Source: Chitinophagaceae bacterium (GTDB lineage Bacteria; Bacteroidota; Bacteroidia; Chitinophagales; Chitinophagaceae). Taken from it: DNA of 64,000 nucleotides. The notes under the pieces are model-generated. The model was not told the origin of the DNA, searched no databases, and saw only the letters and a program-made list of their open reading frames with translations. This document shows, piece after piece, positions 2,816 to 61,378 of this stretch. Every line of letters begins with the position of its first letter. Positions within the stretch are counted from its first letter, which is position 1. A program made the position numbers and the translations under genes. Where the stretch lies: positions 4,641-68,640 of the forward strand of contig JAYURR010000174.1 in the NCBI GenBank assembly GCA_043756605.1, read 5' to 3'.

Positions 2816-3514
2816 ATGTTTAATAAATTAAAATTGATTAAAGCCATTGTTTACCGGTTTTACAGTTCCATCATCACTTTCATCATTGCATACCTGTTCA
2901 CCAAAAACCTGCTGGCATCTATATCCATCGGCATTATTGATTCTCTGATAAAAATATTTTCTTATTATGCTTTTGATGAAGTATGGGCAAAACTTACCGG
3001 GTTTAAAAACAACCCGGCTGTAATTTTTTTAACTGGTTTAAGCGGTTCGGGTAAAACCACCATTGCCAAAGCGCTGGTTGAAAAATATAAAAAGAAAGGT
3101 GTGATACCGGTACTGCTGGATGGCGATGAAATAAGAAAAGTGATTCACCAGACCGGTTTTGATGAAGAATCGAGAAAGAAGCATAATTTAAATGTGGGTT
3201 ACATGGCATCCTTGCTGGAAAGCCAGGGTAATGTGGTAATTGTATCGTTGATATCACCCTATATAGACATACGGAACGAAATAAGAACCATGTGCAAAAA
3301 ATTTGTTGAAGTACATGTTTGTACCGATATAAAAGTTTGCATACAACGTGACCCCAAAGGTTTGTATGCAAGAGCCATTGCCGGAGAGATAAAAGATTTT
3401 ACGGGGATATCGGCCCCCTATTACGCACCTGAAAACCCAGAAGTTTTACTTGATGCCGGAGTGCTGAGCATTGCAACCTGTACCGATAAAATATTTAAAG
3501 CAGCTAACAAATGA
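2816..3514 (+). CDS. cysC: Adenylyl-sulfate (APS) kinase with N-terminal DUF2061-like membrane domain
   Basis: P-loop FLTGLSGSGKTT, LLDGDEIR, SLISPY, RDPKGLY, FTGISAPY; the first ~58 aa form a hydrophobic hairpin ending YYAFDEVW. Confidence 0.9.
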   Translation: MFNKLKLIKAIVYRFYSSIITFIIAYLFTKNLLASISIGIIDSLIKIFSYYAFDEVWAKLTGFKNNPAVIFLTGLSGSGKTTIAKALVEKYKKKGVIPVLLDGDEIRKVIHQTGFDEESRKKHNLNVGYMASLLESQGNVVIVSLISPYIDIRNEIRTMCKKFVEVHVCTDIKVCIQRDPKGLYARAIAGEIKDFTGISAPYYAPENPEVLLDAGVLSIATCTDKIFKAANK

Positions 3515-18017: not shown

Positions 18018-18671
18018 ATGAATATTCAGGATTTCCCTATAACTATCGGTTTAATAATTGCCAACGTAATTTTTTCTTTAATTGGTTTTAGCAATGCCGC
18101 TTTTATTGATAAAACCATTATGTGGCCATACCGGGTTGCCCGGGAGAACCAGTACCACCGTTTTATAAGTTCGGGTTTTTTACATGCCGATTGGATGCAC
18201 CTTATCTTTAACATGTTTACCTTTTTCTTTTTTGGTATTGGTTTAGAGAGTTATTTAAAAGCATACGGCCTTGGTGGTAATATATCTTACCTGTTGTTAT
18301 ATTTTTTGGCATTAATTGTTTCTGATATTCCCAGTTACCTAAAGCATAAAGATGATAATAATTACCGGTCGCTGGGTGCTTCGGGTGCGGTAAGTGCCGT
18401 GGTTTTTGCAGCAATTGTGTTTAATCCGTGGAGCAGTATCCGGCTATACGGTTTTATAAAAATGTCGGCAGCATTATTTGCCGTATTGTACATTGTGTAT
18501 TGTGTTTACATGGGCAAAAAAAACAGCGATCATGTAAACCATGATGCTCATCTGTGGGGATCTTTATTTGGCCTGGCATTTATACTGGTTTTAATAGGCG
18601 TAGTAAGACCCGAATTGTTTACCCCCATTTTTGAACAGCTTAAGCACCCCAGTTTATTTGGCAGAGAATAA
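18018..18671 (+). CDS. Rhomboid family intramembrane serine protease
   Basis: FLHADWMHLIFNM, SLGASGAVS (catalytic Ser), NHDAHLWG (catalytic His). Confidence 0.93.
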   Translation: MNIQDFPITIGLIIANVIFSLIGFSNAAFIDKTIMWPYRVARENQYHRFISSGFLHADWMHLIFNMFTFFFFGIGLESYLKAYGLGGNISYLLLYFLALIVSDIPSYLKHKDDNNYRSLGASGAVSAVVFAAIVFNPWSSIRLYGFIKMSAALFAVLYIVYCVYMGKKNSDHVNHDAHLWGSLFGLAFILVLIGVVRPELFTPIFEQLKHPSLFGRE

Positions 18672-20081
18672 TGATAGCTGCAATATATTTTTAGCGCTGT
18701 CCGTTATTTTAAACCTATCATCAATACGCAGGCCAACCACCCAGATGATTTTTTTATCCATTTCAATAACCCATGTTTTTTCTTTTTGGGTGAGGGATAA
18801 TTTCTGATCAATTAAAAACCGACTTAGTTTTTTCTTCTTTTGCATGCCCAGCGGATAAAAATAATCGCCGGGTTTGCATTTGCGGAGGAGTAAGGGGAAT
18901 TTTATTTCAGATGCATTTACTTGGGCGATTTGGTTTGAGGTTTGTAGTTGGTGGTTGGTGGTTGGGAGCAGTTCAATATTAATTGAACCCTGCTGAAAAT
19001 CAACTTTTATATCATTTTTTTCTATAAAAATATTTTGCGCCTCTATAGTTTTATTTGGCGCAATAATAAGCCAGTTGCGGTTTTTAATGATGCGGTGTGT
19101 GGCTGATGAAATATATTTTCCGGTTTCGCTTTTTAATAAATCAACAACTTCATTTGTTTGATGTGCTGTAAAACCGTAGTCTTTTACAATCTCGTAAAGT
19201 ATTGTGTGCAATGCTTCGGTTTTCTGTAATTTTAAAACAGGGATATGTATTTCGTTGCCTTTTTGCTCCAGTAATTTTTTTTTGGCAAGATGTACAGATT
19301 GCTGGTACAGCGTTTCAATTTCCCGGAAACGTTCAATATTGTTCAGCAAATTATCCTGCACCTGCGGAAACACTTTTTGCAGATCGGGAATGAGTTGGTT
19401 GCGAAAATAATTGCGGGTGTATTTATCGGATGCGTTGGAAGAATCTTCCACAAAATTTAAATTATTTGCTTTTGCAAATGCAGCAATGTCTTCTTTTTTG
19501 GCAAAGAGTAAAGGCCGGATAATATTGCCTTGTTTTGGTAAGATACCATGCAGCCCATTAATGCCGGTGCCTTTAAAGAAATTCATTAAGAGGGTTTCGA
19601 TGTTATCGTTGGCGTGGTGTGCAGTGATAAGAAAATTGGCAATGGGCAATTGGCAATCCGGCTCTGAAGTTTCAATCTCTTTTGCATTTTGCATATTGCC
19701 TATTGCCAATTGCCCATCGCCCTTTGCATATTGCATATTGCCTGTTAACTCTGCAAACCAGTTGTAACGCAATTCCCTGGCGGCAACCTGTATGCTGAGT
19801 TTATTTTCGGTTGCAAATGTTTGTGTGTCGAATTTTTTAACCTGTACTTCAACATCATATTTTTTACCAAGTTCTTTTACAAACGCTTCATCACGTTCGC
19901 TTTCATCTCCACGCAATTGAAAGTTGCAGTGAGCAATGGTAAAATCGTAACCAGCCTGTTTGCAGAGTTCGCAAAGCACTACACTATCTACTCCCCCGCT
20001 TACGGCAAGCAACAGCTTATCTTTTGGTTGAAAAAGATTTTTGTGTTTGATGTATTGCTGAAATTTTTCTAAAAGATTCAT
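18654..20081 (-). CDS. tilS: tRNA(Ile)-lysidine synthetase carrying a repeat-derived insertion
   Basis: AVSGGVDS PP-loop, AARELRY, TAHHANDNIET, YTRNYFR, C-terminal KKKLSRFLID. Confidence 0.96.
   Translation of the reverse strand: MNLLEKFQQYIKHKNLFQPKDKLLLAVSGGVDSVVLCELCKQAGYDFTIAHCNFQLRGDESERDEAFVKELGKKYDVEVQVKKFDTQTFATENKLSIQVAARELRYNWFAELTGNMQYAKGDGQLAIGNMQNAKEIETSEPDCQLPIANFLITAHHANDNIETLLMNFFKGTGINGLHGILPKQGNIIRPLLFAKKEDIAAFAKANNLNFVEDSSNASDKYTRNYFRNQLIPDLQKVFPQVQDNLLNNIERFREIETLYQQSVHLAKKKLLEQKGNEIHIPVLKLQKTEALHTILYEIVKDYGFTAHQTNEVVDLLKSETGKYISSATHRIIKNRNWLIIAPNKTIEAQNIFIEKNDIKVDFQQGSINIELLPTTNHQLQTSNQIAQVNASEIKFPLLLRKCKPGDYFYPLGMQKKKKLSRFLIDQKLSLTQKEKTWVIEMDKKIIWVVGLRIDDRFKITDSAKNILQLSLFSAK
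18929..18965. repeat. Heptamer tract inside the 3' part of tilS
   Basis: Coding strand caaccac-caaccac-caactac-aaacctc-aaaccaa, encoding PTTNHQLQTSNQ. Confidence 0.6.
19634..19742. repeat. Heptamer-arm palindromic element in frame inside tilS
   Basis: ggcaatg/ggcaatt repeats (19634-19657) are inverted relative to attgcct-attgcca-attgccc (19695-19717); two ttgcat(a/t) tandem tracts are also present. Confidence 0.85.
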
Positions 20082-20106
20082 ACCCCTGTCCCCTAAAGGG
20101 GAACTT
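20082..20106. repeat. Solo C/G hairpin arm abutting the tilS start codon
   Basis: acccctgtcccctaaaggggaact; on the tilS strand it reads agttcccctttaggggacagggt-ATG, resembling the DUF559 element right arm. Confidence 0.65.
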
Positions 20107-20228
20107 AGTTAATTAGTGTAAAATAATCTGCCTGCAGTATTCCATTCATTCGCTTCAAAAAAAGTTCAATAGAGTTATACTGTACAAGAGTGCGACGCCA
20201 ATGAAGCTGATTAAAGATTAAAAGCCGG

Positions 20229-57876: not shown

Positions 57877-58079
57877 GATAAGAATACTGGGTTAGTTCTT
57901 CAGGTTTCGTAAACACGATTATTGAAAAGTGAAGATGTCAGGCGGCAAATTTACGCTTTTAAAGACAGAATGTACCGATTACATTATAATTGACTTAATG
58001 AGGATAGATAAGTTGCTGCCATACTGTCACGGTTTGCCTGCATTTAACTATCTTTGCCACCTAAAAAAAATGCAGGTTA

Positions 58080-59588
58080 ATGTTGAATGTAGCTACCAAT
58101 AAAAAACATGATGAAGCAAGGCAGGGAGAAGCATTTGCCCTGTTTGCCAACGATACAAACCCATACAAAAAATACTTTTACATTGAAAGTTATGGCTGCG
58201 CCATGAATTTTGCCGATAGCGAAGTGGTGGCTTCTATATTAATGGATAATGGTTTTGGTGCCACCAATAATTTTAAAGAAGCCGATCTTATTTTTATAAA
58301 CACCTGTTCTATCCGTGAAAAGGCAGAAACCACTGTACGCAAACGTTTAACAGAATTTCGCCAGATAAAAAAACAAAAACCAGGCATGCTGGTGGGTGTG
58401 CTGGGCTGTATGGCCGAGCGATTGAAAGCACAGTTTTTAGAAGAAGAAAAATTAGTTGATTTAGTAATTGGCCCCGATGCATACCGCAGTTTACCTGCAC
58501 TAATTGAAGAAGCAGAAACCGGCCAGAAAGCAGTAAATGTTTTATTAAGCCGTGATGAAACCTATGCAGATATTGCACCCATTCGCCTTAACAGCAATGG
58601 TGTAAATGCGTTTGTAAGCATCATGCGTGGCTGCAATAATATGTGTTCGTTTTGTGTGGTGCCATTTACCCGTGGCCGGGAACGAAGCCGTGATGCCGCA
58701 TCTATCATCAACGAATGTAAAACCTTATTTGAGCAGGGATACAGAGAAGTAACTTTGCTGGGGCAGAATGTGGATAGTTACCATTACACAGCCCCCCCGG
58801 CCATCCAAGGGGGGAGTTTGGAACACCCTGCAAATTCAAATAGCACTGTAAATTCGCAGGGTGCTTTTTCTCCCCCCTTGGGGGGCGGGGGGGCTGCTGT
58901 TACTTTTGCCATACTTTTAGAGCAGGTCGCACTAATCTCTCCCCTCCTCCGTGTACGCTTCTCCACTTCGCATCCAAAAGATATTACCGATGATGTGTTG
59001 CACACAATTGTGAAATACGAAAACATCTGCAATTATATTCACCTGCCGGTACAAAGTGGCAGCACACGTGTGTTGCAAATGATGAACCGCACCTACAGCC
59101 GTGAGTGGTACATTGCCAAAGTAAACCGCATACGGGAGTTGATACCGCATTGTGGCATTTCAACTGATATGATAACCGGTTTTTGTACCGAAACAGAGGA
59201 AGATCACCAGCAATCTTTAAGCCTGATGGAATACTGCAAGTACGATCTGGCTTATATGTACTTTTACAGCGAACGGCCGGGAACCCTTGCTGCCCGTAGG
59301 TTTAAAGATGATGTACCGCTTGATGTTAAAAAACGCAGACTACAGGAAATGGTTGACCTCTATCGTGGCCACTCATTACTTGCCATGCAAAAGGAAGTGG
59401 GCAAAACCCGTAAAGTATTAATTGAAGGTCCATCTAAAAAAAGTGAAAACGATTTGTATGGCAGAACCGATCAGAATAAAGTAGTGGTATTTGAAAAAGG
59501 AAATTTAAAGGTGGGGGAATATGTAGAAGTACAAATTACATCTTGCACAGCAGGAACATTGATAGGCAAAACCCCCTCCGCCCCCTGA
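58080..59588 (+). CDS. miaB: tRNA-2-methylthio-N6-dimethylallyladenosine synthase carrying an internal insertion
   Basis: [29 protein letters not shown] radical-SAM motif, C-terminal TRAM domain. Confidence 0.97.
58789..58896. repeat. 108-bp palindromic element in frame inside miaB
   Basis: cagcccccccggccatccaaggggggag ... ctccccccttggggggcgggggggctg, with an inner caccctgc/gcagggtg pair. Confidence 0.88.
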
Positions 59589-60058
59589 AGGGGGAACTTT
59601 GTACTCTGCTGATGCAAAGATTTTTTATTTTGTTTCGAAAGTCGGAATGAATATGAAAGAAAATATGTTTTACGGAGCCGGGCATTTGATTTTTGAAAAG
59701 GCGAAGAAGTTGAGAAACAATGTTACGCCAACTGAAATGATTTTATGGGGAAGATTGAAAGAATATTTTCCCAATGTAAAATTCAGAAGGCAACATCCAA
59801 TTTCATTTTATATTGTTGACATATATTGTCATTCTAAAAAACTGGTTATTGAAATTGATGGAAGCATACATGATTTGGAAGAAATAAAAATAAAAGATGT
59901 ATTAAGACAAAAAGAACTGGAGGCACTGGGATTAAAAATCATCAGGTTTACCACAAAAGAAATTACAAACGAATTGGAAGCAGTTTTACAAACAATTGAA
60001 AAACACTTAAAATAATCATACTCCAAAGTTCCCCCTTCAGGGGGCGGAGGGGGTTTTG
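59567..60058. mobile_element. 492-bp element with perfect 35-bp terminal inverted repeats enclosing a DUF559 nuclease gene
   Basis: caaaaccccctccgccccctgaagggggaactttg (59567-59601) is the exact reverse complement of 60024-60058. Mobility is inferred. Confidence 0.78.
59653..60015 (+). CDS. DUF559 / Vsr-like endonuclease domain protein
   Basis: AKKLRNNVTPTEMILW, KFRRQHPI, VDIYC, LVIEIDGSIH, IRF. Confidence 0.92.
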   Translation: MKENMFYGAGHLIFEKAKKLRNNVTPTEMILWGRLKEYFPNVKFRRQHPISFYIVDIYCHSKKLVIEIDGSIHDLEEIKIKDVLRQKELEALGLKIIRFTTKEITNELEAVLQTIEKHLK

Positions 60059-60060
60059 TT

Positions 60061-61284
60061 ATGGAACTACAAACAATAAAAAACCGTTTCGGCATTATCG
60101 GCAATTCATCGGGCCTTAACCATGCATTAAATATTGCCGTGCAGGTTGCAAATACCGATCTCAGCGTACTTATCAATGGCGAGAGTGGCGTGGGTAAAGA
60201 AGTTTTCTCACAAATCATTCATGCATTAAGTGCACGTAAACACAATCCATTTATTGCGGTAAACTGCGGTGCCATTCCCGAAGGCACTATTGATTCGGAA
60301 TTATTTGGCCACGAGAAAGGATCTTTTACCGGTGCAGTTGACAGTCGTAAAGGTTATTTTGAAACCGTTAACGGCGGTACTATTTTTTTAGATGAAATTG
60401 GAGAATTACCACTGGGTACACAGGCACGTTTGTTACGGGTGCTGGAAGCCGGCGAATACATACGTGTGGGCAGCAGCAAAGTGCAAAAAACAGATGTACG
60501 TGTTATTGCCGCTACCAACAAAGAGCTGATTGAATATACCCAGACAAATCGTTTTAGAGAAGACTTATATTACCGCTTAAACACAGTGCCCATAAGGGTT
60601 CCGGCATTGCGAGACAGAAAAGAAGATATTTATTTATTGTTCCGCAAGTTTGTAACCGATTTTTCTGATCGTTACAAAGGCAACCCGGTACAATTAGATG
60701 ATGGCGCAAAAGCTGTGTTAATTAACTATCCGTGGCCCGGTAATGTAAGGGAATTGAAGAATATTGCAGAGCAGATATCGGTACTTAGCCAGGATAAAAT
60801 GATCAACACAAATACCATGCAGCGTTTTTTACCCGATCATAATTATTCACGCTTGCCGGTACTGGCTGGCGGCGCAGGCTCGGTAAGCCAGAGCGAATTT
60901 GCAAACGAAAGGGACATTTTGTACAAGCTTTTTTTCGACATGAAAAAAGATGTAAACGAACTTAAGAAAATGTTTTTTGATCTTTTACAAAACCCCAACA
61001 TTGCACAGCATGCTCCTGTTTATAACAATCAGGCATTTGCAGAGCTAAATAACAATGCCCCGGCAAATAATTCATCGGCACCCGTTTTTTTACCGCATAA
61101 TAATGATACGATTGATCACCACGAAGATGTGGAAGAATCTTTAAGCATAGTTGATAAAGAAAAAGAACTCATCATCAAAGCATTAAAAAAACACAAAGGC
61201 AAACGTAAAGATGCATCGCTTGATTTAGGGATTAGTGAGCGTACTTTGTACCGTAAATTAAAAGAGTATGATATTGAAGAGTAA
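60061..61284 (+). CDS. Sigma-54-interaction AAA+ / Fis-family regulator lacking a receiver domain
   Basis: GESGVGKE, SELFGHEKGSFTGA, FLDEIGE, WPGNVREL, C-terminal LGISERTLYRKL. Confidence 0.92.
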   Translation: MELQTIKNRFGIIGNSSGLNHALNIAVQVANTDLSVLINGESGVGKEVFSQIIHALSARKHNPFIAVNCGAIPEGTIDSELFGHEKGSFTGAVDSRKGYFETVNGGTIFLDEIGELPLGTQARLLRVLEAGEYIRVGSSKVQKTDVRVIAATNKELIEYTQTNRFREDLYYRLNTVPIRVPALRDRKEDIYLLFRKFVTDFSDRYKGNPVQLDDGAKAVLINYPWPGNVRELKNIAEQISVLSQDKMINTNTMQRFLPDHNYSRLPVLAGGAGSVSQSEFANERDILYKLFFDMKKDVNELKKMFFDLLQNPNIAQHAPVYNNQAFAELNNNAPANNSSAPVFLPHNNDTIDHHEDVEESLSIVDKEKELIIKALKKHKGKRKDASLDLGISERTLYRKLKEYDIEE

Positions 61285-61287
61285 AGT

Positions 61288-61378
61288 AATTGGCAATGGG
61301 CAATGGGCAATGGGTAATGGGCAACAGCCAATGGGCAAAAATATACTGCTCATTGCTTGTTGCATATTGCTTATTGCC
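61288..61378. repeat. GGCAATG-heptamer inverted-repeat element overlapping the lptE-like 5' end
   Basis: aattggcaatgggcaatgggcaatgggtaatgggcaa (61288-61324) ... cattgcttgttgcatattgcttattgcc (61351-61378). Confidence 0.82.

Follow-up and report, generated by a model that had tools for sequence, protein, structure and literature searches.

BoxC, PIT and triplex-motif repeats have been catalogued in Escherichia coli since the 1990s and later in hundreds of genomes. Their E. coli consensus, described as the intrastrand-triplex motif 'TMECO', reads CCCTCNCCC-N3-6-GGGNGAGGG-N3-GGGNGAGGG (PMC4666352). Strain MG1655 carries 23 copies, five of them inverted pairs, and the motif is known from more than 260 genomes, where it is tied to local genomic variability; near the motifs a transposase or integrase was never found, and neither ycjD nor endonucleases are mentioned (PMC4666352). 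Among nucleases, a survey of the PD-(D/E)XK fold places Vsr, DUF559 and the I-Bth0305I-type homing endonuclease in one group (PMC3424549), and I-Bth0305I itself is a dimer with a pseudopalindromic target, whose cut leaves 2-nucleotide (nt) 5′ overhangs (PMC3239194). Here we describe a locus that brings these two subjects together, a 492-bp cassette at 59567-60058 of a 64-kb window (the whole 64,000-nt stretch of a Chitinophagaceae bacterium contig that was analyzed, to which all positions refer), in which a DUF559 gene lies between inverted copies of a three-block repeat at the junction of miaB and a gene for a sigma-54-dependent transcriptional activator. The association of DUF559 with such repeats, which we call arms, holds across phyla. 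As far as we found in the open-access literature and bioRxiv, a DUF559-plus-arms cassette had no prior description; the sources checked there link neither DUF559, COG2852 nor ycjD to flanking repeats and give no experimentally established role for DUF559.

The left arm (59567-59601, CAAAACCCCCTCCGCCCCCTGAAGGGGGAACTTTG) is the exact reverse complement of the right arm (60024-60058), matching at 35 of 35 positions as an earlier note on this DNA, made from its letters, had claimed. This identity ends abruptly on the outside of the arms and is patchy on the inside, where a looser match spans 74 nt at 80%. Each arm consists of the hairpin CCCCC-TGAA-GGGGG and an additional CCCCC block ahead of it, giving the design C5-N4-C5-N4-G5; the left core (59572-59594) reads CCCCC-TCCG-CCCCC-TGAA-GGGGG, and the right core (60031-60053) reads CCCCC-TTCA-GGGGG-CGGA-GGGGG and is followed by TTTTG, its C/G/G orientation being the one used for the E. 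coli triplex-motif consensus. The MiaB C-terminus (...GKTPSAP, stop) is taken from the left arm, which encodes TPSAP, part of the preceding Lys codon and the TGA stop codon (59586-59588) that sits within the loop of the left-arm hairpin, while in syntenic relatives the miaB stop is a TAA taken from the same loop. The right arm stops 2 nt short of the activator's ATG (60058 and 60061, respectively), so that the earlier note described both borders correctly. Between the arms lie a leader (59602-59646) that is partly conserved among cassettes (…gcaaagNtttttatttNatttcgaaagtcgga) and, as the sole open reading frame (ORF), the DUF559 gene (59647-60015, plus strand, 122 aa, PF04480 E 3.5e-29), whose ATG at 59647 is followed by a second Met codon (59653) that is the start in many DUF559 homologues. 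The nuclease is thus the only cargo, intact, and the cassette borders (ttgatagg before the left arm, ttatgga after the right arm) have no direct repeat or target duplication, again in agreement with what had been noted.

Occurrence of the arms by chance is excluded, as the 23-nt three-block pattern with up to 3 mismatches has 6 matches at 4 distinct sites in the window where shuffles expect 0.09, and the hairpin core has 2 distinct sites (4 counting both strands) where 0.18 are expected. A lone arm folds with an energy of –5.5 kcal/mol (z –0.3), no better than shuffles, and therefore the signal is not a stable lone hairpin, it is the inverted pair together with the three-block pattern. The reading of the arm as a hairpin held only in part: the hairpin is there, and it is part of a three-block C/C/G motif of the BoxC/PIT/triplex-motif class (PMC4666352), not a repetitive extragenic palindromic (REP) element. 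Measured against the definition of triplex motifs, the arms have three consecutive short-loop blocks repeated in the genome, with a block length of 5 nt that falls below the 6-15 nt of the ITxF definition. An Rfam scan of 58000-61000 gave noise only (miRNA and snoRNA models far under their gathering scores), so the arms correspond to no described RNA family, and a sigma-70 promoter scan of the locus, with a model poorly suited to Bacteroidota, gave nothing above shuffles. We also note that the arms resemble outward-facing terminator-like hairpins and, when transcribed together, would pair into a 39-bp stem enclosing the mRNA.

The cassette protein matches Pfam PF04480 (COG2852, the E. coli YcjD type) with 101.3 bits against a cut-off of 20.6, covering profile positions 5-108 of 109. 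Its match to the NCBIfam model PRK09767/YcjD (E 8.7e-20) reaches 71 bits against a cut-off of 218, and it is therefore a DUF559 member and not a YcjD equivalog. Residues D58, E69, D71, H75 and D84 are invariant among 26 homologues, and together with the structural comparisons they predict a Vsr/EDxHD-like PD-(D/E)XK nuclease core. By sequence the closest solved structure is PDB 3HRL (E 2.5e-11). The AlphaFold2 model has two N-terminal helices and moderate confidence (mean predicted local distance difference test score, pLDDT, 69), and at this confidence Foldseek aligns it with 3HRL at a probability of 1.00 and a template modeling score (TM) of 0.70 with an E of only 6e-3, and with the catalytic domain of I-Bth0305I (3R3P) at a probability of 0.96-0.98 and a TM of 0.59-0.64 with an E of only 0.07; the sequence of the window DUF559 has no match to 3R3P. 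The Vsr model PF03852 has no match at E values up to 0.01, and a Dcm-type cytosine methyltransferase partner is not among the neighbors (miaB and the sigma-54 activator). Pfam matches of the cassette protein are confined to the DUF559 and MTES_1575 nuclease models, with no HUH/Y1 (IS200-like) transposase and no Hint/splicing (intein) domain; the 122-aa protein has no NUMOD/HTH DNA-binding region and no intein domain (Pfam), and the locus matches no intron family (Rfam). A reading as a defense system was rejected, PADLOC giving weak fold-level matches only (mREase_II, E 3.4e-7; DpdF, E 2e-4) and no system context. Intact copies have a ratio of non-synonymous to synonymous substitution (dN/dS) of 0.07-0.18 at dS 0.3-2.2, and the DUF559 nuclease is kept by purifying selection. 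The arms are near-identical between copies even where synonymous sites are saturated, which argues for constraint or concerted evolution of the arms.

The earlier note proposed examining the flanks of DUF559 homologues for inverted repeats, and we did so in 80 loci of DUF559 relatives (42-92% identity by best segment) from Bacteroidota, Patescibacteria, Cyanobacteria/Melainabacteria, Deltaproteobacteria, Planctomycetota and others, 73 of which were testable. An inverted-repeat score of at least 16 across the DUF559 ORF was found at 42 of the 73 loci and in none of 254 shifted windows from the same loci. With a strict scan for inward-facing three-block arms, 46 of 73 DUF559 loci had one on at least one flank compared with 14 of 226 other genes there, and 30 of 73 had one on both flanks compared with 0 of 226. 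Arm sequence varies by DUF559 lineage (e.g. CCTCACCCCTAACCCCTCTCC-loop-GGAGAGGGG) while the architecture stays constant. The same holds for a set based on E. coli YcjD (Proteobacteria, Elusimicrobiota, Marinimicrobia and others), in which 43 of 76 loci have an arm on at least one flank compared with 5 of 147 controls. The objection raised in the earlier note, that DUF559 homologues might as a rule be free of such ends, therefore fails. Since the pairing recurs across many phyla, DUF559 may be the missing protein partner of the repeats.

To our knowledge, ycjD is the only DUF559 gene of MG1655. It lies at 1351407-1351760 on the minus strand (NC_000913.3), and its TGA sits within a degenerate arm (CACCCTCTCCC-TGAAAG-AGCGAGGGGG). 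Downstream of it come a duplicated 3′ gene fragment and then, ∼170 nt away, triplex motif no. 9 (1351204-1351239); with 23 motifs in 4.6 Mb, the probability of such proximity by chance is ∼0.002. The gene occupies the place of the eefRABCD operon in phylogroups A, B1 and C as well as, independently, in two further lineages (PMC12817139), which makes it a replacement and not a clean insertion. Phylogroup B2 has eefRABCD and lacks ycjD.

Beyond the cassettes, the arms are a dispersed repeat family of their own. An exact match to the 26-nt core of the arm is present in more than 119 stretches from Chitinophagaceae, Pedobacter, Mucilaginibacter and other genomes, a lower bound. Among 127 arms listed, 89 are single, 5 lie beside DUF559 and 31 belong to short inverted pairs, 25 in all, with spacings of 51-185 nt. 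For 69 of the 127, the arm begins no more than 10 nt from the stop codon of a gene that is read towards it, or overlaps that codon. On the outer side of the arm the first three bases are rich in A, and position –1 is almost never C or T. Contig depth in four sediment metagenomes that hold this sequence is ∼1150-1830 for the arms, ∼17 for the flanks and 6-45 for the DUF559 interior; dispersed arms far outnumber DUF559. Because the interiors of the pairs are unrelated, the repeated unit is the single arm, with no conserved miniature element. This also bears on the claim that DUF559 spreads empty copies of its cassette, with 58789 and 20082 given as examples. Repeats do exist at both places, a two-arm insert at 58789-58900 and one degenerate arm at 20083-20108 (plus strand, CCCC-TGT-CCCC-TAAA-GGGG-AACTTAG) that begins one base past the start codon of tilS (18654-20081, minus strand), and they are not simply empty copies of the cassette. 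The general rule that empty copies are deletion derivatives sharing an interior was rejected on the 25 pairs with unrelated interiors, one true derivative (L204, below) being found. As most arms are single and stand at stop codons, and as pair interiors are unrelated, the dispersed arms are not merely empty cassettes. A separate repeat family is seen within tilS at 19630-19725 (minus strand) and at 61289-61337, where arrays of a 7-nt unit (GGCAATG / ATGGGCA) read in frame as GNMQ/GNGQ or PIAN peptides; the tilS array is palindromic.

At the home of the window cassette, the upstream host gene is miaB (58080-59588, plus strand; UPF0004, Radical_SAM and TRAM domains), with its 3′ end supplied by the left arm, and the downstream one encodes the sigma-54 activator (60061-61284, plus strand; Sigma54_activat, E 1.8e-67). 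Comparing this junction in 80 relatives, as had also been proposed, we found it to be polymorphic and hence not fixed. In many relatives it is empty, with 11-50 nt separating the two genes. DUF559 is present at the junction in L200, L211, L233 (truncated to 61 aa), L276 and L220 (L numbers denote compared loci), and also in L002, L003, L020, L021, L025 and L026, L010 being the same locus as L200. One relative (L204) has a 203-nt internal-deletion derivative in which both arms, the leader and the last ∼25 codons are kept, three (L202, L203 and L206) have a right-arm-like hairpin alone, and in two (L205 and L209) the site is degenerate. In these relatives (L199-L278) the junction proves to be a hot spot, as it also holds a ∼55-aa small membrane ORF, a ∼650-nt insert with a HepT/DUF86-toxin-like ORF, and other repeats. 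Syntenic DUF559 copies diverge in step with their hosts, from 92% down to ∼60% identity, which indicates that this insertion is old and its mobility rare; judged by these sequences, the window copy has been inherited mostly vertically. The proposal of a minimal selfish element is therefore upheld as far as it concerns a discrete, transposase-free cassette with an intact and selected nuclease, and has to be tempered in that the copy is old and seldom moves.

At least five distinct junctions carry the cassette. Other tight ones are that after a NuoD-like gene, that between an smpB-like gene and a convergent neighbor, that of a trpE–trpG-like pair and, in Pedobacter, that of hisA and hisF, and genomes typically have two or three DUF559 copies. 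All eight miaB-site copies share one orientation, and both orientations occur at the smpB-side junction. In a neighbor-joining tree the nuoD and hisA copies form site-specific clades, miaB copies are basal, and miaB- and smpB-site copies are intermixed at the tips, where L006 and L007 are sister copies in opposite orientation. This pattern fits rare moves and vertical inheritance, with probable in situ inversion via the arms; DUF559 genes are also enriched (odds ratio 14.3) among predicted programmed-inversion targets (PMC9881135). Several copies are pseudogenized (L005, L008, L026, L233 and L034). Together these observations describe a cassette that occupies a few permissive homes, namely tight junctions of housekeeping genes and in-frame protein loops, is then inherited vertically, and leaves arm-only relics upon decay.

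Two side observations concern unusual joints. On the L005 contig a NuoD-like upstream flank meets the start of the sigma-54 activator (MELQ) across a truncated DUF559 cassette, a joint made either by chimeric assembly through the repeat or by recombination between two cassettes. Several short contigs of the metagenome runs X1-X4 (depth 8-23) fuse the inner ends of the left and right arms, joining 59595-59609 to 60015-60028 and skipping 420-431 nt; these are either tight arm doublets elsewhere or derivatives that have lost DUF559, the contigs being too short for placement.

The in-frame loops are represented in the window itself. The two-arm palindromic insert at 58789-58900 (plus strand) comprises 112 nt of a related arm subtype in frame in miaB, where it encodes 38 residues (TAPPAIQGG…), and its DNA folds with –43.8 kcal/mol (z –8.2). 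The window, L202, L206, L208 and others carry it, and L200, L203 and L199 do not; it substitutes for the ancestral loop WVDEQKELV and is no mere addition. Its empty allele is seen in one metagenome contig, and presence and absence occur within the same metagenomes. Whole DUF559 modules likewise lie in frame in MetH, LeuRS and AroC with both arms translated as Pro/Gly linkers. Four lineages have the MetH module at one and the same position, namely Flavobacterium, Chitinophagaceae, Ignavibacterium and an unclassified bacterium (L062, L075, L077 and L078); the LeuRS module has the identical position in two (L069 and L072), and the AroC module was found once (L067). In most of these loci the DUF559 match lies near position 3001 of the compared locus. 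Around the MetH and LeuRS modules there is no splicing domain, the flanks being arm-encoded Pro/Gly linkers only, and the modules resemble an unspliced 'pseudo-intein'. A protein search for fused hosts that was seeded with the LeuRS-embedded module returned short stand-alone DUF559 proteins only. In five Pedobacter species (L028, L029, L030, L109 and L152) the DUF559 frame passes through the right arm (…PPLGGRGG…) into hisF, which in these loci is without a start codon of its own, and the 'HisF/cyclase' names that the Joint Genome Institute (JGI) gives to stand-alone DUF559 proteins probably stem from such DUF559-HisF fusions.

On balance we lean towards the view that the locus is one copy of a widespread cassette in which a Vsr/EDxHD-type nuclease is partnered with triplex-motif repeats, in a REP-RAYT-like or homing-like manner with an inferred mechanism. 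More broadly, and tentatively, we suggest that BoxC/PIT/triplex-motif repeats across the bacteria have DUF559 as their cognate nuclease, one case being the 23 motifs of E. coli and YcjD; the probability of this broader claim falls somewhat short of even. In such a partnership a small, probably dimeric nuclease would recognize the arms, both at the ends of its own cassette and in dispersed copies, and would nick or cut the DNA there. Host break repair might then copy from another arm-bearing locus. Now and again this would bring the cassette or a single arm to a new junction; it would also hold the arms of one genome to a uniform sequence and cause local replacements and deletions at such loci.

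Several observations weigh against this partnership. A PD-(D/E)XK nuclease alone is incapable of strand transfer, and all of the copying steps are therefore hypothetical. Moves between sites are rare in the tree, the 25 arm pairs have unrelated interiors that often hold ordinary (native) terminators, about 40% of the DUF559 loci are without a detectable arm, and enterobacterial ycjD has arms on its 3′ side only. Among the Logan contigs of the four metagenome runs, a kind of data that reveals presence and not absence, no joint of an empty miaB–sigma-54 junction is listed. Lastly, earlier work found BoxC and PIT to have no promoter, terminator or in vivo triplex activity (PMC4666352).

An alternative is a free-standing homing-endonuclease cassette, in which DUF559 cuts an uninterrupted junction or palindromic site in genomes that are free of the cassette and enters by double-strand-break repair. 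The arms would then be halves of a split palindromic target or insulating ends, and single arms would be relics of lost cassettes and not substrates. Such a model draws on the predicted likeness in fold and catalytic core between DUF559 and the EDxHD enzyme I-Bth0305I, itself a cutter of a pseudopalindromic target, on the identical insertion positions between and inside conserved housekeeping genes of distant lineages, on the presence/absence pattern with decaying copies, and on the single-arm relics at the miaB–sigma-54 junction itself (L202, L203 and L206). Filled and empty alleles moreover differ by replacement of target DNA, as they would after break repair (the miaB insert; ycjD, PMC12817139). 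However, single arms outnumber cassettes by ∼20:1 and stand precisely at stop codons, which is hard to explain purely by relics, the protein is without the long NUMOD/HTH DNA-binding domain behind the specificity of I-Bth0305I, and one DUF559 clade occupies unrelated junctions where a single target is predicted. We consider homing in this strict form unlikely. A transposon with terminal inverted repeats, such as a miniature inverted-repeat transposable element (MITE), was rejected, since the inverted repeats are present but the borders have no direct repeat and filled alleles replace target DNA.

More doubtful still is the notion that the arms are host repeats spread by other means, with REP-like structural or regulatory roles, and that DUF559 is a domesticated housekeeping nuclease in an immobile cassette, which might for example process hairpin or triplex structures in replication, with an arm on either side of its gene to regulate it. 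In favor of this are the strength of the purifying selection and the long persistence of vertically inherited copies at fixed homes, the embedding of the gene in operons, always in the orientation of the upstream gene, and the terminator-like, outward-facing arms with their potential 39-bp stem around a co-transcribed mRNA. What speaks against domestication is the presence and absence of the cassette at orthologous junctions, with pseudogenes and deletion derivatives, the fact that one genome has two or three copies, placed at different junctions, and the in-frame insertions in MetH, LeuRS and AroC, which are signatures of selfish insertion and not of housekeeping. An invertible switch, in which the inverted repeats flip the cassette and thereby modulate the expression of miaB, the sigma-54 activator or DUF559, strikes us as very improbable. 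The two orientations seen at the smpB-side junction, in which even the sisters L006 and L007 differ, and the enrichment of DUF559 among predicted programmed-inversion targets (PMC9881135) do point to inversion, but the cassette has no invertase gene, eight of eight miaB-site copies are co-oriented, and no strand-changing joints at the locus are listed in the Logan contigs of the four metagenome runs; inversion through 35-nt repeats may be a passive by-product of the arms.

If the partnership of DUF559 with triplex-motif repeats is real, it would be a second, independent alliance of a repeat and a nuclease beside REP-RAYT, built on a Vsr-type PD-(D/E)XK enzyme. It would account for the origin, conservation and instability of triplex-motif repeats and point to a reason for the genomic instability that has been reported around them; essential proteins such as MetH and LeuRS would be places where its cassettes can settle in frame and without splicing. 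The repeats and DUF559, a very large nuclease family, each gain a candidate partner, and E. coli K-12 with ycjD and its 23 motifs offers a direct test system. For annotation, arm-encoded Pro/Gly peptides and whole DUF559 modules have to be expected within real proteins, and read-through fusions have apparently seeded the wrong 'HisF/cyclase' names.

The closest functional analogue of the cassette is REP-RAYT, and the closest relatives of its enzyme are probably the Vsr-type homing endonucleases. Like the REP/REPIN-RAYT systems (REPtrons), the cassette places a small nuclease gene between inverted copies of a short hairpin repeat with further copies across the same genome, its inheritance is mostly vertical, and the repeats are found at the 3′ ends of genes. 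In contrast, RAYT is an HUH/Y1 single-strand transposase and DUF559 is Vsr-like PD-(D/E)XK without known strand-transfer chemistry; DUF559 is present in 2-3 copies per genome and RAYT in one per repeat family; and the DUF559 arm pairs have non-conserved interiors and no GTAG/CGTC tag. With the EDxHD/Vsr-like homing endonucleases (I-Bth0305I, PDB 3R3P) and free-standing homing endonuclease genes, DUF559 has in common a catalytic fold and catalytic residues that are predicted to be related, insertion into conserved genes or the spaces between them, polymorphic presence and absence, and copies that decay. Unlike them it has no intron or intein around it and no NUMOD/HTH domain, it does have inverted-repeat arms, and its in-frame copies must remain unspliced in the host protein. 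Rickettsia palindromic elements (RPE) and bacterial MITEs have terminal inverted repeats as well, but the cassette has neither a target-site duplication nor a transposase family to borrow, and its arms also act as single units. Finally, the BoxC/PIT/TMECO repeats have the three-block design of the window right arm, that is a C-block, a loop of 3-6, a G-block, a short loop and a G-block, and both kinds of repeat are dispersed, highly conserved, found as single units and as close inverted pairs, and tied to local rearrangement. They differ in that the window blocks are 5 nt and not 9, under the search threshold of 6 used in PMC4666352, in that the second loop is 4 nt in the window and 3 there, and in that a nuclease gene stands between the window-type arms, which are also found in frame within genes, whereas the E. 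coli repeats are reported to be strictly intergenic with no associated gene.

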